Source of the DNA: a virus
Taxonomy: Duplodnaviria; Caudoviricetes
Reading direction: 5' to 3' (one strand)
DNA length: 64,000 bases
IMG/VR virus record: IMGVR_UViG_3300013121_000036
Span: 1 to 64,000 of that record
Shown here: in pieces, positions 1,558 through 61,868 of the stretch
Layout: each line of letters starts with the position of its first letter
Numbering within the stretch: the stretch's first letter is position 1
Translations under genes and position numbers: made by a program
Notes under the pieces: model-generated
The model's database searches: none
Seen by the model: only the letters and a program-made list of their open reading frames with translations
Told to the model about the DNA's origin: nothing

Positions 1558-2274
1558 ATGGCATCAGATTGGCGACAGGTCTGTCAAGGACCACGCTTTC
1601 GCTACCTCGACAACGGCCAGGTAGAGGTCGAGGGACAGGGCGTGATCCTTTCCAGCGACAACTACTGGGGAGACCTCGCCAACATCCCTCGCGTCCAGGC
1701 GGCCTTCGGTGACATGATCCAGGCGGCGTCGGAGAAGCACGGCGTGCCCCCGCTGTGGATGCGATCCATCGCTGTCGTCGAGGGTGGGTGGAAGTACCCT
1801 ACCTTCATCAACTCCGCGGGCGCCGGTGGAGTCATGGCCATGACTCCGGGGGCGTGGTTCGCAGGAACCGGCGTTCACCCGTCCTCCGACGACATCAAAG
1901 ACCCCGCCAAGAACATCGAGGCGAGCGCCGCCTTCTTGCGCACCCTCGTCGAAAAGCACGGTGACTTGCCCGCCGTGGCCGCGGCCTACAACGCCGGGGC
2001 CCCCAAGTGCTCTCCGACGACGAGGTGCAAGGACACCATAGGCGGGTCGTGGGACTTCGACGGCACCTCGGCCGAGAACAGCTTCGGGATGGTCGAGGAC
2101 TGCACAAACGGTAGAAGCAGCGCGTACTCCAGGCGCGCCGTGGAGATCAACAACACGCTCGTGGAAATGGGGTACGGGGGCACGTCATCCTCCGTGTCCG
2201 TCGAAAACGTGGTCGCCGCAGTCGTCGGGCTCGCTGCCGGGTTCGTCCTGTTTCGGAACTTTGTCAGGGGTTTA
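1558..2274 (+). CDS. lytic transglycosylase (SLT) with C-terminal TM anchor; ends at TTA
   Basis: AASEKHGVP..IAVVEGG, GAGGVM, NIEASAAFL, AAAYNAG motifs. TM plus basic tail, TTA at 2272, next ATG at 2277. Confidence 0.85.
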
Positions 2275-2276
2275 CG

Positions 2277-2519
2277 ATGCCAAGGGCTCTTGTTGGAATC
2301 ATCAAAAAGGCTTCGGAAAACGTGTTCCTGTCAACACATGCAAAAAGCATGAAGACGGATGCCTTTCCGAGCGAAACAAAAGCGAGAGAGCTGTTCTCTC
2401 GCGGGCAGATGGGCACAGCCAACCTCGTCTTCGAGAAGGCCGACGCCTACACAACGAACGTCTACTACGAATACGATGATAGGAGCACCCCTCCGAGCGA
2501 CGTTGTGCCGCCAGGATGA
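2277..2519 (+). CDS. hypothetical protein
   Basis: ATG with AGGGG upstream, directly after the TTA end of the SLT gene. Confidence 0.55.
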   Translation: MPRALVGIIKKASENVFLSTHAKSMKTDAFPSETKARELFSRGQMGTANLVFEKADAYTTNVYYEYDDRSTPPSDVVPPG

Positions 2520-2537
2520 CCATGCTATGGTCGATCT

Positions 2538-3317
2538 ATGACAACGATCGACCTCATCAACGCGAACAGCTACGACTACATGGCGGCCATGCCGGACAAG
2601 TGCGTGGACGTCACCATCTGTGACCCACCATACACGGAGCTTGTTCACAAGAACGCCAAGAGCTTTGACGGAAAGAGGGTGATGTACGCAGACATCAACT
2701 TCGACCCGCTGCAAAGCTACGACTTCGTTCGTCAGCTCCTTCGGGTGACAAAGAGGTGGGTAATCTGCTTCTGCGCACTTGAGCAGCTCGGCGACTACCA
2801 GAGGTCGTGCGGCAAGAAGGAATACGTCAGAAGCGGCGTGTACCGGAGGTGCCAGTCGACGCCGCAGATATCGGGAGACCGCCCTGGCCAGGCGTGTGAG
2901 GGCCTCGCCATCATGTCCTCCGAGCCCGACGACGAGCCCGAGGAGTACGGCGTGGCCATCATGCATCAGAAGGGCAAGAAGAAGTGGAACGGGCGCGGCT
3001 CCCATGCCTTCTGGCAGTTCGCCAGGGACCGAGGTCACAGGTTCCACCCGACGCAGAAGCCGATCCTGCTGATGGAGGACCTCGTCTACAACTTCTCGAA
3101 CGAGGGAGAGCTGGTCTTTGACCCGTTCATGGGCAGCGGCACGACGGGGGTGGCCGCTGCCCATCTGGGCCGCAACTTCCTCGGCATCGAGATTGACGAG
3201 AACATGTTCGGCGTGGCGAAGGCCCGCATCGACAACGAGCTTGGTGTCAGGATCCAGTACGCCTCTCGCGAGGATCAGGTCAAGAAGCAACTCCCACTCA
3301 TCGGAGTGCATACCTGA
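2538..3317 (+). CDS. N6-A/N4-C DNA methyltransferase (beta class)
   Basis: DPPY ... HPTQKP ... FDPFMGSGTTG ... GIEID. Confidence 0.92.
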   Translation: MTTIDLINANSYDYMAAMPDKCVDVTICDPPYTELVHKNAKSFDGKRVMYADINFDPLQSYDFVRQLLRVTKRWVICFCALEQLGDYQRSCGKKEYVRSGVYRRCQSTPQISGDRPGQACEGLAIMSSEPDDEPEEYGVAIMHQKGKKKWNGRGSHAFWQFARDRGHRFHPTQKPILLMEDLVYNFSNEGELVFDPFMGSGTTGVAAAHLGRNFLGIEIDENMFGVAKARIDNELGVRIQYASREDQVKKQLPLIGVHT

Positions 3318-5348: not shown

Positions 5349-5563
5349 CCCAGGAATGCTCCTGCTATGCGGCAGGCGCCTCGCCTGTCTGCGCCGCAAG
5401 AGTAGTGCAAGAGGCCGGCAAGGCCAAGGATGGCGGCTCCGCCCACCATGGCCACTCTCGCCCTCTCCCTTCCGTCCTCTGCGTCCATGAGGATGTTCCC
5501 AAGGTAGGCAGCGCCGAAGAGGATGGGGATCATGGCCAGAACGGTGGCGGAGTCTTCTGTCAT
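5345..5563 (-). CDS. small two-TM membrane protein
   Basis: MTEDSATVLAMIPILFGAAYL...; ATGA-coupled. Confidence 0.6.
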   Translation of the reverse strand: MTEDSATVLAMIPILFGAAYLGNILMDAEDGRERARVAMVGGAAILGLAGLLHYSCGADRRGACRIAGAFLG

Positions 5564-5772
5564 AGCCGCACCACAGAAACATTCTCTTTGATGTCCGGCG
5601 GCAGCTTCTCGAACTGCAAGAACGCCTCGACGACGTTGCCGAAGATGAGGCTCTGATGAGGCTCGTCGGACCACTCGACGGTGACGCGAGAAGCGACTCC
5701 GCCGACAGCGGCGTACTTGTTCTGCTTGGTGTCGTAGAAGGTGTATTTCATCTTGCCCAGCTCGAATACCAC
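5560..5772 (-). CDS. hypothetical protein
   Basis: Operon-packed ORF. Confidence 0.55.
   Translation of the reverse strand: MVFELGKMKYTFYDTKQNKYAAVGGVASRVTVEWSDEPHQSLIFGNVVEAFLQFEKLPPDIKENVSVVRL

Positions 5773-9988: not shown

Positions 9989-9989
<1 letters not shown>
9813..9989 (-). CDS. hypothetical protein (58 aa)
   Basis: ATG overlaps the upstream TTA (TTATG); MVDAILSGGEFGG... Confidence 0.6.
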
Positions 9990-12019
<2,030 letters not shown>

Positions 12020-12196
12020 TAAAATGCTAACCCAAACGCCGCCGACGAGCTTCTGGGGAGTTCCCACCTTCCTCGTCCTTACTCTACCCCATACGATGTA
12101 GAACGTGTCAGGAGGAGCGCCTCCGTTGGCAAGAGGAGGGATCTCGACCTCGGACACGTTCAAGTACACTGGGTTAGGTGGTTTCGTCTCACTCAT
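12020..12196 (-). CDS. hypothetical protein (58 aa); ends at TTA
   Basis: In the standard code it runs 254 aa, out of frame across the collagen gene. TTA at 12022-12020 ends it 31 nt before that gene. Confidence 0.6.
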
Positions 12197-13122
12197 GGCA
12201 CCGGAGTCCCTGTGGCATCAACCCATCCTCCGGCACCATCGTACCATATGGGGAAAGGGGGCGGGTGAGAGGCGCCGGAAGTCTCGAAGAACGTGCATCC
12301 GGTAGATAGCTGCGAAGGCGGCCCAAACGGCGCGATTGGGCGGAAAGACGAGGCTCCGCTGCCTCCGCAAGTACCAAACGGAGCGTTGATGATGGCGCCA
12401 GCAAAGGATGGCATTGCGAAGGGGAAGGCTATGCCTCCGTCATGTTCGAGTATGAGCGCCGTTCCAACAGCCAAGGCGGGCGTCTGAACCATGGCTGGGT
12501 CGAGAGGTTGCGACGGGTTGATCTGGTCAAAGACGACGAGCAGAGTGAACCCGAACGCCGCTGCCGTGGTGCCACACATGATAAAAGGCTGCCCCGAGTC
12601 TGATCTGAACGAGCCTCCCGCAAGAGCGATGACTGCCATCCCAGAGTCAGGCGTCTGTACGATGGGGGCAGTCCCAGCCGCCGCAACGACAGCGTTCACG
12701 CCGACTCGATACACCGGAGGCTGAGTAACCTCGATAGGGTCGTTGACCCAAGCGTTTGGGCTGGAGTTGTTGAACTCAAGAACGAGAGGGCCGGTGGGGA
12801 GCCACAGGTTCCTCAGCACAGCGCCATCCTGAATCTGGATGGTGTTGATAGTCGGATCCCCATTCTTCGGGGCAACGATGATGGCGCCGTCTTCTCCCAG
12901 GTAGTGAGTCCCCGCAGGGATCACCAGAGGCGGGTCTCCCGTCTGCTGGGAGACCTCGATAACAGAAGCTCCCGAGCGCTCGTTGCTGCGAACAGCAGCC
13001 ATGACCTCCGACCATGTTCGTGCCGTGCCCCTGCCGGCGGGAGACCAGTAGATCGGCCTCTCCGCCGTCTTGCCAAAGATCGGAACCCAGCCAGGGTTGG
13101 ACACATACAGAACGGAGGACAC
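12193..13122 (-). CDS. probable fibre/spike protein (start uncertain)
   Basis: C-terminal part of the 1124-aa track ORF. Begins with VSSxxYVxxPGWVPIF, which is shared with the collagen protein's N-terminus. Confidence 0.65.
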   Translation of the reverse strand: MSSVLYVSNPGWVPIFGKTAERPIYWSPAGRGTARTWSEVMAAVRSNERSGASVIEVSQQTGDPPLVIPAGTHYLGEDGAIIVAPKNGDPTINTIQIQDGAVLRNLWLPTGPLVLEFNNSSPNAWVNDPIEVTQPPVYRVGVNAVVAAAGTAPIVQTPDSGMAVIALAGGSFRSDSGQPFIMCGTTAAAFGFTLLVVFDQINPSQPLDPAMVQTPALAVGTALILEHDGGIAFPFAMPSFAGAIINAPFGTCGGSGASSFRPIAPFGPPSQLSTGCTFFETSGASHPPPFPIWYDGAGGWVDATGTPVP

Positions 13123-13200
13123 ACTTTGATGGATGCCATGCGCAACCAGACCGAGCCAAAAGCGAACTTGGTCTGACCAGTTCGTTGCGCAAGGATTGCG

Positions 13201-15567
13201 TAACGATGCCTTGACGGCGTCCCACACCTCGGCCATCCACTGCTCGGCGGCGGCCATGTCCCATGGGCCATCCTTGGAAACGACCTGCGCGATCAGGCAC
13301 GCATTCGTCGCGTCGACCCACTCGATGACCTTCTTCGCGGTGTCGCCAGCGACCTCCACGAACTTGGCCGCGAAGTCCTTTGGACTGGCACCAGAGCTGT
13401 AGGCGGCCTCCGCATTCGTCACGAAGGTGACGAGGAACTCTTGCGGGAACGGCATCTGCCCGTTGACCTTGATGCGAGCAAGGAGTGCGCGCCGCCGCTC
13501 CGCTTCCTCTGGCGGGATCTCTCCCTGCACAGGAGGCTCCGGCGGGGGGGCAGCCTCAGCGGGAGGAGATGGCTGCGGAGCCGGCGATGGGTTTTGCTGC
13601 ATCGGCGCCTGCTGAGACTGGGGCCTGCCAGGGTATGACCTTTGCTTGGCCTGAGGCGCCTCGGGCTGTGGCTGGGGCTGGGGAGCCCTTGGCGGGGCTG
13701 ATGGCAAGGCCGGCGCCTGGCCAGGCATCTTCGGCATGGCCCCGCCGAGCCCCCCCAGCAGGAGCGGAGCGAGGGCCGGAGCGAGCTTGGGGAGGGCGTC
13801 CGCCAGACCCTTGGCGATCATCTGCTTCGCGCTCGGCTCGCTGGGCTCTTCAGAGCCCTTCGCGTACCCGAGGAGAGATGCCTTCGCGTCCAGCTCTTGA
13901 AGCTGATCGAGGAACGGCTTGTTGACCTCGGCGTTGAGCCGGTCGACCTTGTCTGAGAGCGTCGAGTTCTCGGCCCTCAGGCGGTTCAGTTCCATGTTGA
14001 GCTGCTCGACGACGAGCTGGTGAGAGCGCTCCAGCGCTCTCATGTCGCGCTCGTGCTCTTTCCTGGCAGCCTCCATGTCGCGCTCGCGATCGGCCTTGAT
14101 CGACGCGATCTCCCTGGCCGCATCACCCTTCGCGGTGGCAAGGTCGCGCTCACGTCGCTCCTCGGCGTCCTTGACACGACGCTCCGAAGTGTCGGTCAGG
14201 AAGCGCTCCCGGCGTTCCATGTCGCCGCGCAGCATCGACTCTCTCTCGGTGAACGACTTTCGCTCGTTCTCCAGACGCATCTCGAACGTTCGTGACATCT
14301 CGGAGACGTCAGCCCGGTGCCTCGCCTCGGCTCGCTCCAATGCGTCTCGGTGAGCCGAGTCGGTGCGCTCCATGCGCCTCTCGTAGTCGTCCCTCAGCCT
14401 CGCCAGCTCGTTCTCCTTCGCGGAGAGCCTCGTCTCGAAGTCGGCCCTCATACGAACGACATCTTCCGAGCTTCCCTTCTGCTCCACCAGAGCCTGGACG
14501 ATGCGAGACGTGGGGCTCTCGTCGGCCAGCTTCGACAGCCTGGCCTCGATCTCCCTCCGCGCCTCTCGCTCGTCTTGGAGCTGCCGCTGAAGGATCTCGA
14601 CCTGACTCCTGGCACCCTCCTTTGCGGAGTCGATGGCGGCCGTCGACATGTCGCTCAAGAGCTTGACGGTGACGTTGTCGGTTGCCGCCGAAGATGGCTG
14701 CCTTGACGAGGTGTCTATCATCTTCGTGATGATGGGAGCGAACGCCTTGACGACCTCGCTGTCCGCCTTTGCCGACGCCACGGCAGCGGGCCACCCGCTC
14801 GGTTGTGGCATCCCGTAGTTGGGCATGTACGACTGGCTCATCTGTTCCTCTTGCTGCACAGGGATGCCAAGGTTTGGAGGCCCTGGGAATCGGAGTTGGA
14901 CGGTTGCATGTTTGACCACGCGAGGCATCCCGTTGATGTCGAGCGGACCCCTCGTTGCAGGACCGTACACGAGTATCTCATACGCGGAGCCGCCGTACCT
15001 GATGGCGAATTCCTCGTCGCTCATCCACCCGGTCGTGCCGAGGAAGCCGCCGACGTCGATGCCTCCCATCTTCGTCGGCTGAGTGCGCCTCACGTGCAGG
15101 TACCACCCGGAGGCAGGCTGCTTCAGGTCAGGAAAAGCGGTGGCCAAGTCGGCCATCGACTCGACCTTCGCCCTTCCCTTCTGCAACGCCTTCTGCTGCG
15201 CCCTCTGCTTCCACTCGTTGGCGCCCTGCTCTTCGTCGTAGACTTGAGCGGCCATCGGGTTCGGAGTGGCAGAAAATGCCCTCAGAATGTCGTCCGCCTC
15301 GTCCTCTGAGGCAAGCAGTGGAGCGGTGTTGGCAATCACCTCAGGCTCGACGACTGGAGCCGCGGCTACATTTGGAATTTGTGGCGGCGGCTCGCTCGTG
15401 TCGGCGGGGAGTGGTGCGTCTGACTCGGTGGACGACACGGCCTCCACCACGGTGGGCTGCTCCTGCTGAGCGCCTCGCCGCTTCAACCGCACCATCTTCT
15501 GCTTCGGCTGAGGCACCTCTTCAAGCAGATCGCCAGCCTCGGCAAGATGGTCGCTGAGCGTGCTCAC
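13201..15567 (-). CDS. large coiled-coil/Pro-rich protein (788 aa); ends at TTA
   Basis: Long E/R-rich coiled coil and Pro/Gln linker; TTA at 13203-13201 separates it from a compositionally unrelated gene. Confidence 0.75.
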
Positions 15568-16043
15568 CCCTCGTCCTCTTCGTCGTCCTCGTCCTCGTCT
15601 CCTCCCAGGTCGGCGAGGCGTTGCTGGGCAGAGACGATCTTGTCCATGACAGATCGGAGTGCCTCCACGCTCTCGGGAGGCGCGTCCTTCGCCTGATCGA
15701 TGCCGGACTGGATCACCATGGCGGCAGAGGAAAGGGCGTCACCGATCATGTTGTAGCTCTCGACGTCGATGCCACCGTCGCCATCGTCGTTGTCCATGAG
15801 AGCGGCCACTTGCGCCTCAAGCAACTCGAACTTGACGGCTGATGCCTTGACGAAGCCGCACAGCAAAGGGATCAGGCTGTCAGCCACACGCCCTTGGAGC
15901 TTGCTGGAGTCCGCCGAACGGATCTTGTCGCGCTCGTCAGAAAGGCGGCCAAAGACCTTCGTCAGGGCCTTCTGGTCGTCCATCGGCAGTTCGTCTGAGA
16001 TGCCGTCTTCGGGGAGATTCCACTTTGGTGCAACCATGTTCAC
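15564..16043 (-). CDS. acidic helical hypothetical protein
   Basis: GGAG SD, GTGA coupling, D/E tail. Confidence 0.75.
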   Translation of the reverse strand: MNMVAPKWNLPEDGISDELPMDDQKALTKVFGRLSDERDKIRSADSSKLQGRVADSLIPLLCGFVKASAVKFELLEAQVAALMDNDDGDGGIDVESYNMIGDALSSAAMVIQSGIDQAKDAPPESVEALRSVMDKIVSAQQRLADLGGDEDEDDEEDEG

Positions 16044-16837
16044 TTCTCCTTGCTGTCTTCGATCTCGACAAGGGGCACACCCTGTCGCTCTCTGCCCTGT
16101 TGCTTCTTCGCTTCGTCCTTCAGCTCAAGCATTTCGATGCCCCTCGGATCAGGCGGCATCCTTGACTCGCAAGCCACGATGGCTTCGTCTGTCAGAGACA
16201 TCCTGGCCCCGCCGACGCTCTTGTAGGCGCCGCAGAACCTCATCATGGGAGTGGCCGGCTTTCCGGCGTTGTCGATCGTCGCGTCGATGAGCGCGAACCT
16301 TGAATAGTGGATGCACTTCGGTCGCACGGGACGAACGGGGCACAAGATCGCGCCGGCAGCTCCAACAGCCCATCGCGTTCCCCACTTGACCACGGTCTGA
16401 TCGATGGAGAACGAGCGACGGGTGCACTCGACGCCGTCTTTGTCGAAGCGACTCCTCGTGCTCTGCTCGACGACGTGCTTGGGGGGTGCGACGTCTTTCC
16501 TGAGGAACTTTGCCATGTCTCGCAGGGCGTCCACGTACAGGGTCTCGTCACGGAACACCTCGACCCACTTCCTCCTGTCCTCCATACAGACGAGGGTGTC
16601 CTCGTTGAGAGGCTGGTTGTCCTCTCGATACGGCACGTCGGCCGGACGAGGGAGGTTGTCGTTCGGGTCGACGACGATCGGCGTGGCCTGCCCAGGGAAG
16701 GCGTCAAAATGGTGGTCGGCCGTCTCGAACCCGATCTCGTCGTTGCCTGCCTCAGAAACGGGGAAGGCGATCTCTTGGGTCGTGGCCGCGACCCTCTTCT
16801 CATCCTCTCCGAGGAGGTCGTCATCTTTCTCCGACAT
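16040..16837 (-). CDS. hypothetical protein
   Basis: MSEKDDDLL...; the upstream part of the track ORF is antisense to the helicase. Confidence 0.7.
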   Translation of the reverse strand: MSEKDDDLLGEDEKRVAATTQEIAFPVSEAGNDEIGFETADHHFDAFPGQATPIVVDPNDNLPRPADVPYREDNQPLNEDTLVCMEDRRKWVEVFRDETLYVDALRDMAKFLRKDVAPPKHVVEQSTRSRFDKDGVECTRRSFSIDQTVVKWGTRWAVGAAGAILCPVRPVRPKCIHYSRFALIDATIDNAGKPATPMMRFCGAYKSVGGARMSLTDEAIVACESRMPPDPRGIEMLELKDEAKKQQGRERQGVPLVEIEDSKEK

Positions 16838-23639: not shown

Positions 23640-23915
23640 ATGGAACGAAGCAATGGTGCGGACCTTGCCTCTCATGTAGACGGCATGGTCATCAGGCAGT
23701 TGTGTTTCAGCACGGCGGTCGCCGTGGCCGCTTCGATGCTCGACAAGATCGAAGAGTTGCTCTTGGCCTCGATGGACATCACAAGAGACGAGTTGACGAA
23801 GGACAGGATGTCCATGCTCATCTCTGAGATGAGGGAAGTCAAAGAGCACGCTGTCAACCTGGCCGAGATCACCAACTCAAGGGCGAAGGCAAGCCTCGCT
23901 CACGATCTCCGATGA
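23640..23915 (+). CDS. hypothetical protein
   Basis: GAGG SD; helical. Confidence 0.65.
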   Translation: MERSNGADLASHVDGMVIRQLCFSTAVAVAASMLDKIEELLLASMDITRDELTKDRMSMLISEMREVKEHAVNLAEITNSRAKASLAHDLR

Positions 23916-25339
23916 CGTTTCGGCCTCTCCCTTTCGAGGATGACTTCCAAGTCCTCGCCAGGGGGGCCAACGACCAAGAAGAGGAGAAGCGCGTCGAAGT
24001 CCCTTCTCTGTCGTACGCAGAGACGGTCGAGCTGATCAGGGCGCTCGACCTGAGATACAGGGTCAAGTCGGAGGGCGAGTCCGTCTCGTGGAAGGTCCTT
24101 CCGAGCTTCGGGAACACGTGCAAGCTGCTCAGGTCGTGGTCTCCCTTCACGAACATGCTCAGGTACAACGAGATGACGTTGTTGCCAGAGTACGCTGGCA
24201 CTCCCATCTACGAACCCATGGTTGGTTCCATCAGAGAAGGGCTTGAGGCTACCTTCTTGGTGGACTGGCCGAAGGCCGTCGTGGAAGACGCCATCAGGAC
24301 AGTCAGCGACGAGAAGAGATATCACCCCGTCAGGGAGTTCCTGACAAGCCTCCGGTGGGACGGGGAGCGTCGCGTTCACAGGGTCGCCGAAGAGATCCTT
24401 GGACTCGTTCCGCCAGACGAGGATGGCCCGTGGCTTGAGAGCGTCATGATCGAGAAGTGGTTCATCGCTACCGTGGCGAGGGCACTGGATCCTGGGTGCA
24501 AGGTCGACACGGCGCTCGTCCTTCAGGGGCCCGGCGGTCTCAAGAAGTCGCAGTTCTTCGCCGTGCTCGGCGGCAAGTGGTTCAGCGACACGCACATGAA
24601 CCTGGCGAACAAGGACTCCTATCAGCAGCTACATGCGGCCTGGATCTACGAGTGGGGAGAGATTGACAAGTACACGAGGGGTCGTGCAGGCGCGGAGTTG
24701 AAGGCGTTCCTGTCGAGCCCCGTCGACAACTTCCGAGCCCCCTACGACAGGGCGACGAAGATGCACCCACGCACCACGGTGGTGGTCGGCTCGACGAACG
24801 AGGAAGAGGTGGTCGAGGACACGACGGACGGCATGAGGCGCTACTGGATCATTCCCGTCCGCAAGCCCATCGACAAAGCCAAGCTCATCTCTTGGCGTGA
24901 CCAGCTATGGGCCGAGGCTGTCTTGCTCTACGAGCAGGCGCGTTCGACGATGGACGACAACTGGTGGTGGCTCTCCGCCAACGAGGACGACAAGAGGCGG
25001 GAGAACAACGAGAGGTACGAGGCTGTCGACGCCTGGGAGGCGCCGATCACGAGCTACCTTTCGAGCAGGCAGGTCACTCACGTGTCCGAGCTTCTTTCTG
25101 CGGCCTGCGGCCTGCACACCAAGGATCACCGAAAGCCTGAGCAGATGCGGGCCGCTTGTGTTCTCCGACGCCTTGGCTGGAAGAAGGGGTTTCGCACGAT
25201 GGTTGGCAAGGCCCGCATCGTCCCCTGGTTCAGACCTCAGGATGGTCTGGATCAGGGTCGCATGAACGACTTGCTCAGGGTCGAGTCTCGGGTCATGTTG
25301 AGCTATTTGGAGGACGAGCGTCAGCGATTTACGACCTTA
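23912..25339 (+). CDS. VapE/virulence-associated-E P-loop NTPase (replicative helicase-like); ends at TTA
   Basis: YHPVRE, PGCKVD, LQGPGGLKKS, WIYEWGE, FRAPY, GSTN, GMRRYW, RDQLWAEA. TTA at 25337 precedes a non-coding repeat region. Confidence 0.9.
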
Positions 25340-25375
25340 CCCCGACATAGCCCGACCTGGGCCCACCCCCACCCG

Positions 25376-25720
25376 AGGGGGCAAGTGTGGCAGGCGTGGC
25401 AGGTGTGGCAGAGAGCTACTGGACAAAAAGGCTCTCCTGCCAACCTGCCACACCTGCCACACCTTTTTCCAAGACCTAATAGAACCCACCACTCCAGAGA
25501 AGTCTCCAAAAAAGGTGTGGTAGGTGTGGTAGGTTGGCAGGAGAGCCAAAACGTCGAGCGGCGTGTGACACACCTACCACACCTGCCACACCCACCTCCT
25601 CATGACGCACCACCAGATCGCGAAACCGTTTCGTTTGCCGTGCTGCGTCATGACCAAAACTGTCGCTTTGTTTCGTGATTGTTTCGTGATTTGGCAGATT
25701 GTTTCGCGACCATCCTGTTC
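25376..25720. repeat. direct and inverted 9-mer repeats (GGTGTGGCA/TGCCACACC), origin-like
   Basis: Clusters in alternating orientation near 25385, 25444, 25513 and 25568; GTTTCGTGATT x2 near 25670. Confidence 0.65.
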
Positions 25721-25808
25721 GAGCGTGCTGCAAGAATCATTCCGACCAATAGATCGTACTTATCTGGATCTTCGAGACGAGAGGGGGGTGGCGTGATATG
25801 CAGTCGTC

Positions 25809-26135
25809 ATGGCGGCAGGTGAGTGCAGGCTGTCGGAGGCATCGCGAGAGGTGAGCAGGGTTGCCATGTCCGTGGTCGCGTCCCTCGACGACGTGGCCAG
25901 GCTTTCGTACGCAGAGAATGTCGATGGCCGTAAGAGTGGGGCCGCCCTTGCTGTGGCCAGGATGACCGCTGACATGGCTCGAAACGCCCATCTACTGTTG
26001 CCCGCAGAGGAGGAGAGCCTCGATGCTTGCGCGAGCACCGATGATGTCCTCCGTTGGTCTTTGAATTTCAAACAGAGGCTCTTCTCCGTGGTCTCTCAAC
26101 TGGAATCAATCCGTACCTCGTCGAGGTGGTTATGA
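25809..26135 (+). CDS. hypothetical protein (ends TTA-TGA)
   Basis: ORF ending TTATGA, overlapping the next ATG. Confidence 0.6.
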   Translation: MAAGECRLSEASREVSRVAMSVVASLDDVARLSYAENVDGRKSGAALAVARMTADMARNAHLLLPAEEESLDACASTDDVLRWSLNFKQRLFSVVSQLESIRTSSRWL

Positions 26136-26437
26136 ACGGCATGAGGTCTGTGGATTTTGAGATGAGTCCCCTGGAGACCCACATGAGGTCTGTGAGAAAC
26201 CTTGAGGAGGTCGCGAGAGAGGTCGTCCGAATCTCCGGTGTTGGCGCTTCCGCCGCCGACAGGTTCTTCGCCATCGTCAAGCTGGCCGAGAACATCTCGA
26301 AGCTGTGTGACGATGTAGGACTGGAGTACGACGTGAGCCCGCCTGATGAGGGGGCCTCGTACGAGAGTCGAGTGCTTTGGTTGCGCGAGGCGGCTGAGCA
26401 GATACTGGAGAAGATCAGACTCTTGTACTCTGTGTTA
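26132..26437 (+). CDS. hypothetical protein; ends at TTA
   Basis: GAGGT SD. TTA at 26435 is followed by a promoter; otherwise the frame would overrun the next gene out of frame. Confidence 0.65.
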
Positions 26438-26446
26438 CATGTGGTC

Positions 26447-26474
26447 TTGACACCCACAAGCCTGTGTGTACCAT
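26447..26474 (+). promoter_or_regulatory. sigma70-type promoter
   Basis: TTGACA-16-TACCAT with ATG 7 nt downstream. Confidence 0.6.
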
Positions 26475-26480
26475 CGCCCT

Positions 26481-26981
26481 ATGTCGAACAACTTGATCAA
26501 GAAGTACGAGAGGCGCGTCGAGGCTCTGTCGGCAGAGCTGGCGGACGCAAAGGAAAAGCTGAAGGGCATCAAGGCGGGCGATGGCGTGTCGCGACATCGC
26601 CCCGAGGGAGGCACGATGACGGCGCTCATCGTCAAGGCGCTCCTGAAGAAGCCTGGCATGACCAGCGACCAGATCGCCTCCAAGATCGGCGAGGCGTCGT
26701 TCCGAGTTCGAGCGCGCATCGGATACATGGTCCGAGAGGGCCTGATCGAGGCTGTCGATCGGGGCATGTACCAGGCCACGGCCTTCGGCTCAGAGAAGCT
26801 CGACGGCAACAGGCTGGCGAGGATCTCTCGCAGCGAGCCGAAGAAGAAGGCCAAGGCCGCTGCGCCCGCCAAGAAGGCGGCCACCAAGAAGGGGCGCAAG
26901 GTCAAGGCGCCGGCCAAAACCAAGCGCAAGGCCAAGTCCGAGCAGGCCGAGGCGGAGCCGCAGCAAGCCGCGGCAGAGTTA
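26481..26981 (+). CDS. winged-HTH protein with Lys/Ala-rich (histone H1-like) tail; ends at TTA
   Basis: PGMTSDQIASKIG..VRARIGYMVREGLIE..RGMY; KKAKAAAPAKK tail; TTA at 26979. Confidence 0.75.
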
Positions 26982-27024
26982 TCCTACATCAGGTACCGTC
27001 GTCTTACTTATCTTAGACATCTTG

Positions 27025-27053
27025 TTGACAAGGAAAGTTGCCATCGGCATACT
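27025..27053 (+). promoter_or_regulatory. sigma70-type promoter
   Basis: TTGACA-17-CATACT in an AT-rich spacer that lies inside the 676-aa track ORF. Confidence 0.7.
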
Positions 27054-27077
27054 TCTCTCCACCAAGGGAGAACGACG

Positions 27078-27989
27078 ATGGCAACTGACCTTTCGAAGCT
27101 GGGCGCCGCAAGCCGCGGCGATCTTTTCCGTTACCGCCCCGAGGATCTGACCCTCGTAGAGGACAAGGAGCACCCACTCTATGACCCGAGGGTCGAGTGG
27201 AAACCAGCGGAGTCGATGATCGACTCGATCATCAGGAGCGGGGTGGCTGAGCCGATCCTCGTCAGAAGGAACGGTGTCGTCAACGGCAAGCCTGTTGTCG
27301 AGGTTATCAACGGTCGGCAGCGCACCAAGGCCGCCATTGAGGCCAACGTCAGGCTGAGGGCAGAAGGAAAGGAACCAGTTCTGGTTCCCGCCCGCATCAT
27401 CCAGTGCGACGACGCAGAGGCTCAGGCGCTGATGTACCTGACCAACGAGCTTCGCACCAACGATGACGAAGTCATGCGCGCAGAGAAGATCAAGCGCTAC
27501 ATCGACATGGCGGGCGACGAAAGGAACGCGGCTGTCGTCTTCGGCGTGACCCAGAAGACCATCAAGACCTACCTCGTCCTGGCAAACTCGGAGCCTGCGG
27601 TGAAGAAGGCCGTCAAAGACGGCCTCCCGCTCAAGGACGTGAAGAGGCTCGATGACATGCCTCGCGAAAAGCAGCGCAAGGTCATCGAACAGCTTCGAGA
27701 GAAGGGCATGATCGGCAGCGGCGACGGGTCTCTCCTCATCGAGAGGGAAGCCAAGGTTCACGAGCCTGCCGAGAAGAAGCCCAAGAAGCAGTACGCCAGG
27801 TCGTCGAAGCTGATCAAGCACGTTGCCAATCTTCTCTCTGGAGCCGGCGACCTCGTTCCGGTCAGCGTTCTCGCTGATGCACTCTTGTGGGCCGCCGGTG
27901 ACAAGTCCGACTTCGCCAAGTCCATGAAGAGCCTCGGCATCGACGTTCCTGGCGACGACTGGAAGCCTGGCAAGAAAGACGAGGGTTTA
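27078..27989 (+). CDS. ParB/Srx-like N-terminal domain protein with HTH; ends at TTA
   Basis: HPLYDPR..SIIRSGVAEPILV..VINGRQRTKAA..TNELR; AAGGGAG SD; TTA at 27987. Confidence 0.85.
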
Positions 27990-33929: not shown

Positions 33930-34229
33930 ATGGCAAAGAAGTTGGACTACTCCTCCGCGAAGAAGGCTCAGAAGGTGTCCGAGGAAGCGTCCGCCCAGAG
34001 GGCCGCAAGGGGTGTCGTCAGGTCGTTCGACGACGAGCCCAAGAGGGTCGTTCGGGTGTCGACCAAGACCGTCAACATGAGGATGTTCAACCTCAAGAGG
34101 GTGAGGATGCTCTACGTCTTCGAGCTTGAGTGCGGGCACTCAGTGAATTTCGCGAGGATGCCTCACGAGAAACACGAGTACCTGCTCTGCTCAAGGTGCC
34201 ACTCAGACTCCTTGACACCTGGCATGTGA
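33930..34229 (+). CDS. hypothetical protein with C-terminal Zn ribbon
   Basis: LECGH..CSRC. Confidence 0.6.
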   Translation: MAKKLDYSSAKKAQKVSEEASAQRAARGVVRSFDDEPKRVVRVSTKTVNMRMFNLKRVRMLYVFELECGHSVNFARMPHEKHEYLLCSRCHSDSLTPGM

Positions 34230-34242
34230 GGTCGGATACTAT
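34212..34242 (+). promoter_or_regulatory. promoter of the ORF-amber-Pth2-tRNA cassette
   Basis: TTGACA-17-GATACT, overlapping TACTAT. Confidence 0.6.
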
Positions 34243-34329
34243 GGCAGCCATGCTCTAGCTGCCAAGAGGCCCGCCCTCCTCGAACAAAGCCAGTCCCGTG
34301 AACAGAAACGCTTGTCCGTGGAGGAAGAT

Positions 34330-34698
34330 ATGAACAACCATGTTTTGTTTCGGAACATCTCGCAACTGAAGAAGCGCAGCAGGCTCCAGCACCTCATCTA
34401 CAACTGGATGATCCAGACGCCGCGAGAGAAGGTGGAGCGTAGGGTGAGCGAGCAGAGCCTTGCCTTCATCAAGGGCGAGGCACGTCGCATGAGGAACATC
34501 CTGAGCGTTGACACCGCGCCAGATGGAGCTGAGCCTGGCCACCGAACGCTGACGGCGATGGCGGTACACGAGGTCGTGGACTTCGTCGAGTGGCTCAAGC
34601 TCGACTCGTACGAGGTCAAGGTCTGTGCTCCTGGTTCGGTTGCCGAGAGGAAGCTTAGGGCTGCTGAGCGCAGGGCGGCCAAGAGCGCCGAAGCGTAG
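34330..34698 (+). CDS. hypothetical protein, N-terminal partner of the amber read-through fusion
   Basis: GGAGGAA SD; ends EA-TAG, in frame with the Pth2 domain. Confidence 0.8.
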   Translation: MNNHVLFRNISQLKKRSRLQHLIYNWMIQTPREKVERRVSEQSLAFIKGEARRMRNILSVDTAPDGAEPGHRTLTAMAVHEVVDFVEWLKLDSYEVKVCAPGSVAERKLRAAERRAAKSAEA

Positions 34699-35007
34699 GG
34701 CAAGCTCTACATCGTGGTGAGGGAAGACCTGCCGCAGGGCGCAAGGGTAGCCCAGTCGGTTCACGCCGCCGTCGAGATGGCAGTGGAGCATCCACGCGAA
34801 TTCAGGGCGTGGTGGAAAAGCTCCAACACCGTCGTGGTGTTGCTGACCAAAGACGAGGAGCGCCTCACGTCGATCTTCGACGATGCCATCGAGAAGAACA
34901 TGACGACTGTCCTCTTCAGTGAGCCAGACATGGGCAACCGGCCCACGGCGATGGCCGTCATCGACCAAGGCGCCAAGCGCTTGCTTCGCAAGCTGAAGCT
35001 GGCATAA
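34699..35007 (+). CDS. peptidyl-tRNA hydrolase 2 (Pth2)-like domain, translated by TAG read-through
   Basis: KLYIVVREDL..GARVAQSVHAA..W..VVVL..EPD...TAMA. The first Pth2 strand (KLYIVVR) begins right after TAG and upstream of the only available GTG. Confidence 0.85.
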   Translation, partial: GKLYIVVREDLPQGARVAQSVHAAVEMAVEHPREFRAWWKSSNTVVVLLTKDEERLTSIFDDAIEKNMTTVLFSEPDMGNRPTAMAVIDQGAKRLLRKLKLA

Positions 35008-35045
35008 CATCGACACATGGCCAGGTCCACTTCGGGCCTGGCTTC

Positions 35046-35118
35046 GAGGCCATAGCTCAGCAGGTAGAGCGGCGGGTTCTAAACCTGCAAGTCGCCGGTT
35101 CGAGCCCGGCTGGTCTCA
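35046..35118 (+). tRNA. amber suppressor tRNA (anticodon CUA)
   Basis: Acceptor GAGGCCA/TGGTCTC, D arm GCTC/GAGC, anticodon arm GCGGG-TTCTAAA-CCTGC (CTA at 35079-81), T arm GCCGG-TTCGAGC-CCGGC, discriminator A, no encoded CCA. Confidence 0.92.
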
Positions 35119-35133
35119 CGAAGGAGAACGAAG

Positions 35134-39195: not shown

Positions 39196-39437
39196 GCGCC
39201 TCGACTTCGTCATCGAGAAGGATCCTTGGGTGCCCGTGCTGTGGTGGCAGCAAGTACCTGTCGAGCGGCGCCTCATCATGCTCTCAATGCGGCTGGAATG
39301 TCGAGGCGAGGGTGGCCAACAGATGGTCGAAGGATGCGCGAGAGTCATGGTCCGCCATGGCCACGTCCCTTCGTGAAGAGTACGGAGAGATGGCCGAAAG
39401 AGAAGCGTTCGAGAGGATGAGGTCAGAGCATGACTGA
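39192..39437 (+). CDS. Zn-ribbon hypothetical protein
   Basis: CPCCG..CSQCG. Confidence 0.55.
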   Translation: MSASTSSSRRILGCPCCGGSKYLSSGASSCSQCGWNVEARVANRWSKDARESWSAMATSLREEYGEMAEREAFERMRSEHD

Positions 39438-39765
39438 AGAAGAGTTCAAGCACATCGTCGTCGAGATCCTCAGGAGAAAGAGGGGCAACTTTGACCTTGC
39501 GGTTCTCGACAGAAAAGCAAGGTGGAGGCGACAGTTGTGGAGCCTGGCTGGAAGCATTGCCCACAATGCAAGGATGGTAGCGCCCGGATGGTGCTATGAC
39601 ATGGGCTCTACATACAAAGCCATCTGCGACCACGCCGTCTCTGCCGCTCGTCATGGGATGTCCCCTCAAAACACATCGTGGAAGACGGTTGTCGTGAGCG
39701 GGAAGGTCACGACGTTCTCCTTCCGTCGCAAGAGAAAAGAGGTGTACGGTCGAAGCGCAAGTTTA
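39430..39765 (+). CDS. hypothetical protein; ends at TTA
   Basis: TTA at 39763, then AAGGAG SD and ATG 39799 in the same frame. Confidence 0.6.
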
Positions 39766-40751: not shown

Positions 40752-41369
40752 TAACCTCAAGCAAGCCAGCTCGCTAAGCTCGGCGAGGGCCTTCTCGTCG
40801 CCGGAGAAGACGTTCAGGTCGCAGGGGCCATCCACGCCGGTGGCCCTTCCCTCGTCTCCCTTGTATTGCCAGAAAGCCCAGCTCTTCCACGGCTTGGGGA
40901 GCATGGGTCGCGAGACACCGTAGTGGGCCACCCAGAGGCTCGCTCCAGATGTGTCGGTGGACTCGTCCCCGAAGGGACCCCACCATCCTGCGCCCGTGTA
41001 GACGATGACGTGGCCGAAGAGTGCCACCGCGCCGAGGATCATGCTGCGGCAGAACGCCCTCGTGTCACGACACCCCTTCTCCGTGAGCTGCTCGAAGTCG
41101 ATGGCGGGAGGAAGCCTCTTCTCGCCGCACAAGTCATGGGCGCAGGCAAGGGCATCGAGCTGCGCGTCCACGCTTTCTCTGCCGAGGGCGAAGACGTACG
41201 GGGCCACGTAGAGGCCAGCCTCGGCAGCCCCAGTGGCGTGCCTGACGAACATGTCGTCGGGAGAGGAGCCCCACCCGCACCTGGCAAAGACAAAGCTCTT
41301 TTCTCTGGCGACCTCTGGCCAGTTGACGCGCCGCTGACAGTAGGAAACGTCGATACCTTGGACTGACAT
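40752..41369 (-). CDS. GH25 muramidase (endolysin); ends at TTA
   Basis: GIDVSYCQ, IDFE, VYTG, LWVAHYG, FWQY, GVDGPCDLN. TTA lies 12 nt from the convergent gene's stop. Confidence 0.9.
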
Positions 41370-41413
41370 GTGCGCAATGTCCCACACGATGCCACTCATT
41401 TCAAGGCACAAGG

Positions 41414-41448: not shown

Positions 41449-42087
41449 ATGGACGCAGCGACAAGGCTGAAAGAAGCCGAGGCGAAGCTCAAGTCGACGG
41501 CGCTGACCGGAGACACGGCTTGGCTCAGGATCTCTGACATCATCGTTCCCATCATCGACGCCTGGTCTGACGAGTACACAGCCGCCTGCGGCCTTGACTC
41601 AAGCTCGTGGGCGGCGAGGGTGACCGGCAGGCCCAGGGCCGCCACGATGGCCAGAAAGAGGAAAGACGCCATGGAGAAGGTCGAGGCCGCGGTTCGAGCG
41701 GGGCCAAGGGACCGCGACGTCATCAGGTACAAGATGGGAGACAAGGTCATCATGTACCTTGCGTACACGATGCCTGGACCATCAATGGAGAAAGCCATCC
41801 TTGCCGTCATCCACGAGACGGTGGCAAGGGACGCCATCCTCGACTATGGGACGGCCAGGAGGATAGCTCGCATCGCAACTGGCATGAAGGACGGCCAGAG
41901 CGTGGCCAAGATCCGCCTCTCGCGACTTGAAGAGTGGCTCGATGGCGAGTTCGACAGGTGGATGTCGGACGCCATCAAGGCAGCAAAGTCCGGCAACGGA
42001 TTTGACAAGAAGCTCTCCGCCCCGCCAGGATGTCGCAAGCCATCGCTCAAGAAGACCATGTCGGCGCTTGGCTTCGACGCCGAATAA
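41449..42087 (+). CDS. hypothetical protein
   Basis: 212 aa; the array begins at its TAA stop. Confidence 0.75.
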   Translation: MDAATRLKEAEAKLKSTALTGDTAWLRISDIIVPIIDAWSDEYTAACGLDSSSWAARVTGRPRAATMARKRKDAMEKVEAAVRAGPRDRDVIRYKMGDKVIMYLAYTMPGPSMEKAILAVIHETVARDAILDYGTARRIARIATGMKDGQSVAKIRLSRLEEWLDGEFDRWMSDAIKAAKSGNGFDKKLSAPPGCRKPSLKKTMSALGFDAE

Positions 42088-52398: not shown

Positions 52399-52910
52399 TG
52401 TATACGCAACGAGGGCCGATGGGGTGGGTGAGCCCACCAAGCGCCAATCCTGGCTCTGTTCACTACAACCCTTACCCGCCGAACTTCCTTCCTCCAGTGC
52501 ACGTCGCCCCGACGGGCATGAGCGGCCTGAGTACCGCTGGAAAGGGAGTCGTGTTCGGAGCGGCCCTTGTTGCGTCTCTGGCGAACCCTATCGTCATGGG
52601 CGCGGGAGGCGTGGCTGCCGGCCTGGGGTACGTGTCCTCTTCCGAGGGAAAGGAAGTGCATCACGCCATCAAGTACGGTCTGATCACGTACGGCGTCGCC
52701 GCCTTCGTCCTCGCCGCCGGCATCACGTGGCTGGCCGACACCGTGGTTGACGCTGTCGAGTCGGCGCCAGAACCGGCTCCGGCGATCCCTCCGCCGCCCG
52801 TTCAGGGCGTTTCCCAGGGAGCCCCTGGCATGATCGGGACGCAGCAGACCTACAACGCGCCAGCCCAGTCTGGCATGGTGGGAACGTCTGTTTCGGGGTG
52901 GTGGTTATGA
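52398..52910 (+). CDS. multi-TM membrane protein (ends TTA-TGA)
   Basis: TGATG start; hydrophobic helices. Confidence 0.7.
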   Translation: MYTQRGPMGWVSPPSANPGSVHYNPYPPNFLPPVHVAPTGMSGLSTAGKGVVFGAALVASLANPIVMGAGGVAAGLGYVSSSEGKEVHHAIKYGLITYGVAAFVLAAGITWLADTVVDAVESAPEPAPAIPPPPVQGVSQGAPGMIGTQQTYNAPAQSGMVGTSVSGWWL

Positions 52911-54370: not shown

Positions 54371-54853
54371 ATGTCTCTGGGTATTTTCGACAACGTCGAT
54401 GCAATCGACGCCGGCTCCGATGGCGTCGACACGCCTGACGCCACCGAAGCGGGCAACATCGCGACCGCTGGAGTCCTTCCGCTCATCGCCATCCTTGGTG
54501 GGGCTGCCTACGTCAAGGAACAGTGCGAGACGACTCACGACATGCCAGACTTCGTCTGCGAGCAGATGGGGTGGAGCTTCATAGGGACGCTCCCGAAGGA
54601 CTTCTGCGCCCCCGGCTATCAGGTGTCTCCATCTGGCGGCTGTGTTCCGGCGACGGCACCTTCGACGCCGACCTCGTCGAAGCCCGCATCAACACCGACT
54701 TCGCCGAGGCCGACTTCGCCGAGGCCGATGCCGACCACGACGACGCCCGCCGTTCTTCCGCCACCGCCACAGAAGAGTGGAATCAGCACCCCCGTGATGG
54801 TCGCAGGTGGGCTGCTGCTGCTGGCTGGTGCTATCTATTTCCTGAAGAGGTTA
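54371..54853 (+). CDS. Pro/Thr-rich protein with C-terminal TM; ends at TTA
   Basis: TM plus LKR, TTA 54851, next ATG 54858. Confidence 0.75.
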
Positions 54854-54857: not shown

Positions 54858-55496
54858 ATGTCCATCGGTTCTCTCGCGGGCAAGGGCGGTCTCGGGTCTC
54901 TTGGCTCGGCCGGCGCGCTCGGCATCTTCGACGATTTCGACTTCGGCGACTTCTTCGGCGGGTCGGCTCCCATCGACGCTGGCACCGAGGGTGCCGGCGG
55001 TGGCGACACGAGCGGCGGCGTCGACACGTCACCCCTCACGCCCCAGACGGGCGAGGCTCCCGTCAAGACGTCTCCAGGCGCCGTGCCGAAGTTCGACATC
55101 TGCGCCCCGCCGTACGTCCAAGACCCGCTCAACCCCAACTTCTGCATCCTCGACTCGAAGGTCAACACGACCTGCCCCAAGGGCCAGGTGTATGACCCTG
55201 TCAAGAAGGGGTGCGTCTCGTCGGCCGACTACTACGACTTCCTGGGTGGTCAGGGAACCCATGTGGACCCGACCAAGCAGAACTGCCCCTACGGCCAGAA
55301 GCTGGTCAACGGCAAGTGCGTGAACCTGGCGGCTCCGACTCCGACCGGGACCAGCACCGCGAAGCCCCCCCCGAAGCCAGTCGTCGCCGCCCCCCCGCCT
55401 GCTCCGGCCAAGAAGAGCATGATGGTTCCGCTGGTCGTCGGCGGCCTGGCGCTCCTCGCCGTCGGCGGCCTCGCCTACTACGCCAAGACCCACTGA
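54858..55496 (+). CDS. Cys-repeat protein with C-terminal TM
   Basis: CPKGQ..GCV, CPYGQ..KCV; TM. Confidence 0.8.
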   Translation: MSIGSLAGKGGLGSLGSAGALGIFDDFDFGDFFGGSAPIDAGTEGAGGGDTSGGVDTSPLTPQTGEAPVKTSPGAVPKFDICAPPYVQDPLNPNFCILDSKVNTTCPKGQVYDPVKKGCVSSADYYDFLGGQGTHVDPTKQNCPYGQKLVNGKCVNLAAPTPTGTSTAKPPPKPVVAAPPPAPAKKSMMVPLVVGGLALLAVGGLAYYAKTH

Positions 55497-56768: not shown

Positions 56769-57274
56769 TGCCAAGGACAGTGCTCGACACCAAGCCCTAC
56801 GCCGCCAACCTCCGCAAGACCTTCACTGCGAAGCCGCTGCGCCGAGGAGAGTACGACGTGGGTGTCATGTGGCCCACATCCCTGGTGCACGTGGGCACGT
56901 GCGAGTCTGTCATGTACTCCTCGGACAAGTGGTACGAGGATGGAGAGTTCATCGACTACAAACACGTCGCTGAGGGCCCCCAGAAGCTGTACGTCAACAG
57001 CAACCTCGCTGGACACAAGTGGTCCGGCAAGAGGGTCAAGATGTGCGAGCCGCTCCCCAGTCACGTGGCCGAGCTGGCCCCTTGCCTTGGCATCCAAAGC
57101 GTCTTGCACGACGGCAAAGCCGTACAGATCAGCATTCCCAACTGCATCCTGTTCGGCACCAGGACCCCGGTGGGCAAGGTCCCATTTCTCGTCCTGGCTG
57201 TTCCTGGCGACATGGTGTGCGCCATCGTGACGGGCGAAGAGCTTGACGTGACCTCCGACGGCATTGTCGGGTTA
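56768..57274 (+). CDS. hypothetical virion-operon protein; ends at TTA
   Basis: VMYSSDKW..IDYKH; ends DGIVG-TTA exactly on the convergent gene's TAA. Confidence 0.75.
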
Positions 57275-58432: not shown

Positions 58433-58579
58433 GTACTACTCGTGTACTTCTTTCTGAGGGGGGCCGCAAGAGAAATTTGTCACTTCGCCATGCCGGCGAG
58501 AACAATGAGTCCCTGAACGGCTTTGGCCCCGCGTGTCGAGCGTGGGAGGCGGTCTGAGCCCTCTTCTCTCAGGAGAGGT

Positions 58580-61036: not shown

Positions 61037-61039
61037 CCG

Positions 61040-61071
61040 AAGAGCCCCCCGGTTCGCGCCGGGGGTCTTTC
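61040..61071 (+). terminator. GC hairpin after the core gene (weak terminator or processing site)
   Basis: AAGAGCCCCCCGG-TTCGCG-CCGGGGGTCTTT. Confidence 0.55.
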
Positions 61072-61142
61072 CCCAAAGACTTCACCCTCTCGGGTGAGCC
61101 GGAGCGACCGGCAAAACAACGCTAACAACCGGAGAGAATACC

Positions 61143-61868
61143 ATGGCCAAGCTGACCAACATCCGTGAGCGCGTTCAACAGCCCTTCCGCGATGCGCTCG
61201 TGCGCACCTCGGGCCTCTATGCCGGCACCCTTCAGGACAGGACCAACCTGTTCTCGAACGGCACCAACAAGGACGTCGGGTCCACCAACTTGCCCTCGGG
61301 CAACCAGCTCCCCAGCGACAACAGCATGATCGTGCTGGCGCTGCGCGTGTTCACGTGGTTCCGCCAGAGCATCCTGCGCGGCGAAGCCAACAACGGCGAC
61401 GTGAGCGACTTCCCCAACGGCGCCGGCGAGATCGGTGAGAACAACGTCCTCGGCGCCACCGAGGACGTGTACCGCCTCTACTGGCAGAGCCAGGAGCAGC
61501 TTTTCTGGACCTTCGGCGCTGGCGGCAAGCCCAGCATCGAGCTGATGCCCTCGGCCTACTTCCCCTACGGCGGCGGCCTCCCCGGCGACCTGGGTGGGGC
61601 GTCGGACATCATCAACCTCTACAACGGCGACGCCGGGCACGATCACGTGCTGAAGCTCGCTCGCGCCATCCTCCTGGTGCCGCGCCAGTCGATCAAGTGC
61701 GAGGCCGTCATCCAGGCGCTCCCCGACGGTGGTCAGGCGACCACGTTCGGCACCACCCAGGGCAGCCGCAACATGCTGTCGCTGACCGCCAACCTCAACG
61801 CGGTCGACGCCATCCAGAAGGTGATCACGTTCACCTTCGACGGCCTCTTCTCGCGCGACGTGCAGTTA
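61143..61868 (+). CDS. major capsid protein candidate (single jelly-roll-like); ends at TTA
   Basis: Very strong codon bias, beta-rich, TNLPSGNQLP..LARAILLVPRQSI..FDGLFSRDVQ; TTA at 61866 followed by structured non-coding DNA. Confidence 0.6.

Follow-up and report, generated by a model that had tools for sequence, protein, structure and literature searches.

The window examined here, a stretch of 64,000 nucleotides (nt), is the first 64 kb of the IMG/VR record IMGVR_UViG_3300013121_000036, a phage genome of 110,758 bp in total with direct terminal repeats and a guanine-plus-cytosine (GC) content of 61.5 %. It raises the question whether the codon TTA, leucine in the standard bacterial code (code 11), ends proteins in this phage, as the original prediction had proposed from the letters of the window. 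We consider it probable, at about 85 %, that translation in this phage terminates at UUA (TTA) as well as at TGA, TAG and TAA. TTA is most likely a fourth stop codon, one used also by a clade of its relatives. The central claim, that an in-frame TTA marks the true end of a protein, was borne out by gene-call scores with codon controls, by the ends of homologs, by TTA/TGA swaps between orthologs, by recurrence within a clade and by controls in sister phages.

Genes were picked by dynamic programming from codon log-odds trained on the phage genome itself. TTA is scarce, with 64 copies on the plus and 63 on the minus strand of the window (117 and 116 in the whole genome). Under code 11, 20 in-frame TTA codons were found genome-wide (approximately 33,000 codons), 15 of them in the window, and all 20 were coding boundaries, the rest of the open reading frame (ORF) either scoring negative or being a separate gene in the same frame. 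Re-calling the genes with TTA as a stop, which had been proposed as a check of the claim, gave a total gene-call score higher by 347, 178 genes instead of 164, higher coverage (91.6 % compared to 90.4 %) and less overlap. The stop codons were then TGA in 128, TTA in 25, TAG in 14 and TAA in 10 genes. TTA thus ended 25 of the 178 genes (14 %), and the 19 TTA-ending genes called in the window had exactly the 19 coordinates listed in the original prediction, all of them real in-frame sites at gene ends. A computed count of in-frame TTA inside coding regions gave zero, in agreement with the earlier scan by eye.

The effect was specific to this codon. When the same operation was applied to the ten next-rarest sense codons the score decreased by 127-443, and it also decreased when TAG, TAA or TGA was read as sense. 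The mean coding log-odds per codon was +0.29 over the 20 codons before TTA and -0.11 after it, while no such drop was seen at seven other rare codons. A negative downstream score was obtained at 12 of 16 TTA sites, compared to 102 of 635 control sites (Fisher 5e-7). On the sense strand of genes TTA occurred 31 times in frame 1, 64 times in frame 2 and 25 times in frame 0, in the last case always terminally; the distribution of TAA was similar (34 in frame 1, 32 in frame 2, 10 terminal). When all TTA codons with an open upstream frame were scanned, a two-sided coding signal was seen only at 27987 and 103731, where the next gene in the same frame begins 3 or 12 nt downstream. UCA is a normal serine codon in this phage (197 in frame), and TTG, with 137 occurrences in the training set, is frequently used as sense.

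Homologous proteins end where TTA would end them. The conserved 241-aa (amino acid) protein encoded at 61143-61868, with its TTA at 61866-61868 on the plus strand, has more than 500 relatives at E <= 1e-5. Among the best 119 relatives listed (52-67 % identical), the last residue of 89 falls precisely on residue 241, directly before the TTA. A further 28, from metagenomes, continue with leucine and then with unrelated tails of 8 to about 160 residues rich in proline, arginine and serine, the product that a code-11 gene caller would give at a TTA stop. No conserved tail was found across the 29 homologs with such a leucine tail. On the minus strand, the 1124-aa ORF at 12193-15567 has its TTA (13201-13203) as codon 789, which leaves a 788-aa gene at 13201-15567. 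The relatives found by an exhaustive search with this ORF fell into two non-overlapping groups. Class A, proteins of 680-900 aa, aligned to residues 1 to approximately 790, with ends projected at about 788-809; the other group, proteins of 230-570 aa, aligned to residues 818/835-1124. The junction was not spanned by any of the best 150 homologs. The ORF had been suspected to be a fusion of unrelated proteins, and the two families do meet at the TTA.

The VapE-like and GH25 proteins, whose homologs had been predicted to end at the TTA column, behaved likewise, ending at or near it. With VapE the projected C-terminus of 119 homologs had a median of 448, and 108 of them were within 440-500; TTA is codon 476 of the VapE-like ORF and the read-through frame ends at 588. 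The GH25 muramidase gene (40752-41399 on the minus strand, 215 aa, TTA 40752-40754) had 10 of 12 homologs whose ends lie only a few residues from the TTA column, and its 29-aa read-through tail was found only in this phage. In the record of Burkholderia phage phi644-2 the ParB-like homolog is annotated as a separate coding sequence that has a start of its own, in agreement with a start at 27078, after the TTA at 26979, in this phage.

None of the cultured phages in GenBank resembled this phage at the DNA level, and searches of GenBank phages with megablast and tblastn gave only distant ParB matches. Most of the phage proteins scanned had no match in PHROG or Pfam, and the 818-aa and 281-aa proteins had none in IMG/VR or JGI metagenomes. 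Uncultured relatives were nevertheless found through the 241-aa gene, and the contigs that carry its homologs are syntenic with the phage. The codon following the conserved ...SRDVQ was TTA in all five sequences fetched: L085 (a contig of an NCBI metagenome-assembled genome (MAG), 68.7 % GC), L124 (69.2 % GC), L086 and L087 (from JGI and Logan) and the near-identical strain L082. Making TTA a stop in L086, a locus of 20.9 kb, raised the score by 220, and 13 of its 31 genes end in TTA. The stops are also exchanged between orthologs. The phage gene 56768-57274 (168 aa, TTA at 57272-57274 on the plus strand) corresponds to L086 6092-6742, which ends in TGA, and the two align to the last residue with zero residues left over on either side. 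In reverse, L086 13378-14082 ends in TTA and its phage counterpart 63277-63966 in TGA, and two further ortholog pairs have their stops swapped likewise at aligned ends. L086 also carries two TnpB/Cas12f-like (IS605 OrfB) genes, at 12111-13280 and 15113-16372 (minus strand). Both are TTA-ended, so that mobile elements resident there obey the same rule.

In a maximum-likelihood tree of 118 homologs of the 241-aa protein, all 29 leucine-tail rows fell into one clade of 34 rows, supported by a Shimodaira-Hasegawa-like approximate likelihood-ratio test value (SH-aLRT) of 98; the other five rows of the clade end in canonical stops. Leucine tails thus occurred in 29 of 34 rows of this clade and in 0 of 84 rows of its sister clade (Fisher 9e-23). 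The longest contigs seen from members of the clade were approximately 100-136 kb. Little or no gain in score was obtained with TTA as a stop in 19 IMG/VR relatives, and in the 12 whose conserved C-terminus was located a canonical stop (TAG, TGA or TAA) comes next. The complete relative G007 (179 kb) has 31 in-frame TTA codons, evenly spread, and its score fell by 94 when TTA was made a stop; in G009, also complete (144 kb), 11 in-frame TTA codons were found and the score fell by 26. Judged from these comparisons, the TTA-stop trait appears to be inherited in a clade of related uncultured phages, and sister lineages of the same family appear to keep TTA as leucine. G007 encodes 31 tRNAs including tRNA-Leu(UAA) (L115 12700-18400). 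A transfer-messenger RNA (tmRNA) gene of G007 lies on L115 at approximately 5355-5693, with the tag ANDNSTALPIAA. The tRNA and tmRNA set of G007 is the opposite solution to rare codons within the same phage family.

The TTA bases themselves are no assembly artefact. TTA and TAA are one base apart and the junction contexts are similar, and an error of sequencing or assembly, or a base modification, could in principle turn TAA into TTA. However, the exact read-through proteins are also present in Logan assemblies of another run, and a strain 98.45 % identical to the phage (a 12.4-kb contig) kept all three TTA ends that it covers (61866, 69236 and 70595); 141 of its 193 differences were at third codon positions of the gene calls. 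Contigs of NCBI, JGI and Logan origin also had TTA at the homologous position, and 10 genuine TAA stops remain in the genome. The probability of an artefact is in our estimate very low.

If the bases are real, the default for bacteria and phages would be the standard code, under which TTA would be a normal leucine codon of low usage and the long, overlapping or fused ORFs would encode real proteins. Our own rough extrapolation for a rare leucine codon at 61 % GC is in fact close to the 20 in-frame TTA codons counted. The position of those 20, all at coding boundaries, argues against it, as do the tails, which are non-coding in composition and unconserved, the homologs that stop at the TTA column, and the different behaviour of other codons and of sister phages. 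The standard-code reading is strongly disfavoured and we regard it as very improbable. A less conventional possibility is a conditional code, in which UUA would be read as leucine when a regulated tRNA-Leu(UAA) is present, in the manner of bldA, and would otherwise terminate, so that it could serve as a sensor of the host state or as a timer. Streptomyces does regulate UUA decoding, its phages usually avoid UUA, and phage Hau3 has been proposed to exploit it (PMC10732093). The TTA ends of this phage are also clustered, with a run of five consecutive TTA-ending genes at 23912-27989 (P ~0.006 for random placement). There is, however, no sign of an actinomycete host, and one conserved protein has its best matches, at about 50 % identity, in MAGs of Chloroflexota and cyanobacteria. 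Read-through would moreover give only junk tails or fusions that cross promoters, with no tail conserved in the 29 homologs. This reading appears improbable to us, though somewhat less so than the standard code. Bypassing triggered by UUA, of the type proposed for Hau3, was also considered and rejected: each TTA is followed by non-coding sequence, by a promoter-like site or by a separate gene with its own ribosome-binding site and start, and the homologs end at the TTA.

The main rival to a dedicated stop is that UUA is unassigned, or 'hungry'. The host would have no tRNA-Leu(UAA), or the phage would inactivate it, and the ribosome would stall at UUA, the finished protein being freed either by rescue of the ArfA/ArfB type or by drop-off of the peptidyl-tRNA, followed by its hydrolysis by peptidyl-tRNA hydrolase (Pth) or by a phage Pth2. 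The phage has no tRNA-Leu(UAA) and its standard-code relative brings its own, which hints that the hosts of this phage family are poor in this tRNA; backup stops are not enriched after TTA, and the tail lengths look random. The phage encodes a Pth2 domain (34699-35004), and for the UUA codons of Streptomyces a drop-off route with Pth has been suggested (PMC10732093). Pth2 is, however, also encoded by the two complete standard-code relatives and is therefore not tied to TTA ends, and a gene for an ArfB-like RF-1-domain protein was not found in the phage. Stall-and-rescue is slow and its products are usually tagged for degradation. TTA nevertheless outnumbers TAA as an end by 25 to 10, it closes 13 of 31 genes in L086, replication and lysis genes included, and a single T-to-A change would repair each TTA end. 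The greater use of TTA than of TAA argues against slow stall-and-rescue, and we consider the hungry codon unlikely, although the strongest of the alternatives.

Several points also weigh against UUA as a dedicated stop. The gene calls are from our own simple caller and not from an established program, and all the support is comparative sequence analysis. A weak coding signal continues for about 25 codons past the TTA at 27987. A search for an RF-1-domain protein of the phage was negative (E <= 1). Furthermore, we know of no sense-to-stop change reported in bacteria, and a host with such a code would be unprecedented.

Our comparisons show where the proteins end, and from this we infer how release happens. 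For termination at UUA we favour recognition by a bacterial class-I release factor with widened specificity for the second base, most likely host release factor 2 (RF2), as in organelles with UUA stops, in a cell that would have no competing tRNA-Leu(UAA). This model is the most economical one, since the organellar UUA stops have been linked to substitutions in bacterial-type RF2 or RF1. Only two tRNA genes were found on the phage, tRNA-Asp(GUC) and a tRNA with the anticodon CUA; tRNA-Leu(UAA) was not found in the phage genome. It is possible, if doubtful, that the host itself, and hence all its phages, uses a four-stop code, with tRNA-Leu(UAA) lost and UUA read by an RF2-type factor. If so, the host would represent the first sense-to-stop reassignment in cellular, non-organellar translation, and standard gene callers would miss it, merely lengthening or fusing ORFs. 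In searches aimed at the host, the best matches of the Sak4-like protein were in Chloroflexota and cyanobacterial MAGs (approximately 50 % identity), and TTA is sense at those loci. The phage tRNA-Asp had no close match in five test genomes. The tRNA cluster of a relative was compared with 301 genomes each of Chloroflexota and Actinomycetota; the former gave no match and the latter only two partial ones, at 73 % and 85 % identity.

Sense-to-stop changes have been described only in mitochondria and, since 2025, in plastids (PMC12574857). Labyrinthulean (Thraustochytrium) mitochondria terminate at UUA (NCBI table 23), and peDinoflagellate plastids at both UUA and UCA; the organellar UUA stop has been linked to mutated bacterial-type RF2 or RF1, a substitution of Ser204 in RF2 being implicated (PMC12574857). 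As in these systems, a leucine codon would have become a terminator in the phage, absent inside genes and placed at the stops of homologs, with read-through appearing as fusions. Those are, however, tiny organellar genomes with an identified nucleus-encoded mutated release factor, compared to a 111-kb phage of 61 % GC, and UCA, a stop in the plastids, is still serine in the phage. Mitochondria of Marsupiomonadales and Pseudoscourfieldia (Pycnococcus) use UUA and UUG as stops, which has been linked to an altered mtRF1a (PMC12574857). The change from leucine to stop and perhaps the loss of the cognate tRNA gene are likenesses to the phage, but there both UUR codons are stops and in the phage TTG is sense. 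At the level of sequence, TTA of the phage has the features by which a UUA-stop code would be recognised: it is absent inside genes, aligned to the stops of homologs and restricted to a lineage.

Phages that recode stops, with TAG read as Gln or TGA as Trp, are found among crAss-like, Lak and other phages (PMC8346664). They share with this phage the mis-calling of genes under code 11 and a suppressor tRNA in the genome. The direction is opposite, sense to stop in our case, and their ORFs break under code 11 whereas here ORFs fuse and lengthen. Stop-codon-recoded phages were reportedly described by Ivanova in 2014 and by Borges in 2022. To our knowledge, all published code changes of bacteria and phages are from stop to sense or swaps of amino acids. 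Unassigned codons are said to have been described by Kano and co-workers in 1993 and by Oba and co-workers in 1991, in Micrococcus luteus (AGA, AUA) and Mycoplasma capricolum (CGG). There too GC pressure makes a codon rare, its tRNA is lost and translation halts at it, but these codons are simply avoided and do not serve as gene ends, whereas TTA in the phage is a terminator more often than TAA. In Streptomyces UUA is rare and regulated through bldA, and UUA-triggered bypassing has been proposed in phage Hau3 (PMC10732093). The special role of UUA in a high-GC system, a UUA a few nt before a downstream start (the upstream ORF of adpA) and the purging of UUA by phages are comparable. Streptomyces UUA nevertheless still encodes leucine, in a few regulatory codons in or before genes, and TTA in the phage is the stop of 14 % of the genes. 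Our literature searches found no published description of a sense-to-stop change in a phage or bacterium, in line with the earlier statement that no such case was known for a bacterial virus.

If a clade of phages ends its genes with UUA, a fourth stop would be shown to be attainable for bacterial-type translation outside organelles, and the clade would point to hosts in which the release factor or the set of tRNAs is altered. Annotation pipelines silently give wrong proteins for such genomes, with junk tails at the C-terminus, false fusions (here the 1124-aa and 671-aa ORFs) and short genes that are overlooked. The clade would also allow the theory of codon capture under GC pressure to be tested on a case from nature, and the trait could mark phage-host links for host prediction.

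The individual TTA sites in the window look like normal gene ends. The gaps from TTA to the next gene were 2, 4, 4, 14, 31 and 33 nt, or a one-base TTATG overlap, which are normal junction sizes, and contexts such as TTAcATG parallel TAAcATG. The base after terminal TTA was C in 17, T in 6 and G in 2 cases, the same as in the genome-wide TTAN distribution. Four sites are uninformative alone: one is TTA-TGG-TAG and three are TTA-TGA (26130, 43846 and 52905), the latter being verified as such after having been set aside already in the original prediction. At the left end of the window, the SLT-domain gene 1558-2274 (238 aa) ends on the plus strand with TTA at 2272-2274, and the next ATG is at 2277; read-through adds 25 codons with a score of -10.6 and overlaps the next gene. 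On the minus strand, the lectin-like gene 9989-11428 (479 aa) has TTA at 9989-9991 in a TTATG overlap with the next start that mirrors the TGATG overlaps; this is the TTA-TGG-TAG site. The TTA at 12020-12022, also on the minus strand, closes a 58-aa gene (12020-12196), the weakest gene of the set, with a read-through frame score of -39, and the next real gene after it is a collagen-like ORF starting at 11988. A plus-strand ORF at 11603-12022, in which 12020-12022 would be a TAA stop, was rejected as a spurious antisense frame of the collagen-like gene. The collagen-like protein (11425-11988 on the minus strand, 187 aa, about 20 G-X-Y repeats) lies between the 58-aa and the lectin-like genes and is probably a tail-fibre component.

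The run of five consecutive TTA-ending genes on the plus strand begins with the VapE-like gene 23912-25339 (475 aa, TTA 25337-25339), whose 112-codon tail is repeat-rich and scores -22. The 469 nt that follow this gene (25340-25808) have no coding signal and a repetitive read-through translation (WQ and HLPH repeats), which suggests that these are DNA repeats, possibly iterons of a replication origin. Next are the genes 25809-26132 (107 aa, TTA-TGA with TTA at 26130-26132) and 26132-26437 (101 aa, TTA 26435-26437), the latter followed by a promoter-like TTGACA-N16-TACCAT (26447-26474) and an ATG at 26481. Between the fourth gene, 26481-26981 (166 aa, TTA 26979-26981), and the ParB-like start at 27078 lie a promoter-like TTGACA-N17-CATACT (27025-27053) and a ribosome-binding site. 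The promoters that had been predicted after 26435 and 26979 were thus found, as promoter-like sites, before the next starts. The ParB-like gene 27078-27989 (303 aa, TTA 27987-27989) completes the run and has the least clear boundary of the set, with 168 codons without a canonical stop past 27987. In the minus-strand block at 75-99 kb, TTA ends 2 of 33 genes.

The remaining sites are all on the plus strand. The gene 39430-39765 (111 aa, TTA 39763-39765) is followed in the same frame by a gene with a ribosome-binding site that starts at 39799. The gene 42601-43848 ends with TTA at 43846-43848 in the TTA-TGA context; 42087-43848 consists of a 513-nt non-coding stretch and then a 415-aa protein with a weak match to a transposase family (phrog_4285). 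After the gene 48421-49416 (331 aa, TTA 49414-49416) the next ATG is 4 nt on, and the 42-codon tail scores -15. The gene stopping at 49894 (TTA 49892-49894) is followed by a GAGG ribosome-binding site and an ATG at 49909, and the gene 51494-51817 (TTA 51815-51817) forms a TTATG overlap in which the A of TTA is shared with the next ATG. TTA-TGA ends the gene 52419-52907 (TTA 52905-52907), and the gene 54371-54853 (160 aa, TTA 54851-54853) has the next ATG at 54858 and a downstream in-frame score of -14.

The tRNA with the anticodon CUA belongs to a different case of codon use. At 34212-35119 in the window, a 122-aa ORF is followed by TAG (34696) and, in frame, by the Pth2 domain, and the tRNA lies at 35046-35119, 38 nt past the Pth2 stop. 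This TAG is the only one in the genome with a two-sided coding signal inside an apparent single gene; TAG 80694 also has a two-sided signal but seems to separate two genes in the same frame. The CUA suppressor tRNA appears to serve this local cassette and not the whole genome, and genome-wide recoding of TAG by an amber suppressor was rejected, as TAG read as sense lowers the score. Pth2 in the standard-code relatives G007 and G009 adjoins an odd tRNA (Ile-AAU by ARAGORN), and its presence in both complete relatives weakens the idea that Pth2 is a release device for TTA.

Two observations were made on the TTA trinucleotide itself. The tetranucleotide TTAA is absent from both strands of the 110.8 kb, compared to approximately 150 copies expected from base composition and about 5 from trinucleotide counts by our own estimates, which may reflect avoidance of a restriction site or just the joint rarity of TTA and TAA. 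At 108510-108512 of the genome the same three bases are both the TAA stop of the plus-strand gene 108054-108512 and the TTA end of the convergent minus-strand gene 108510-108887.

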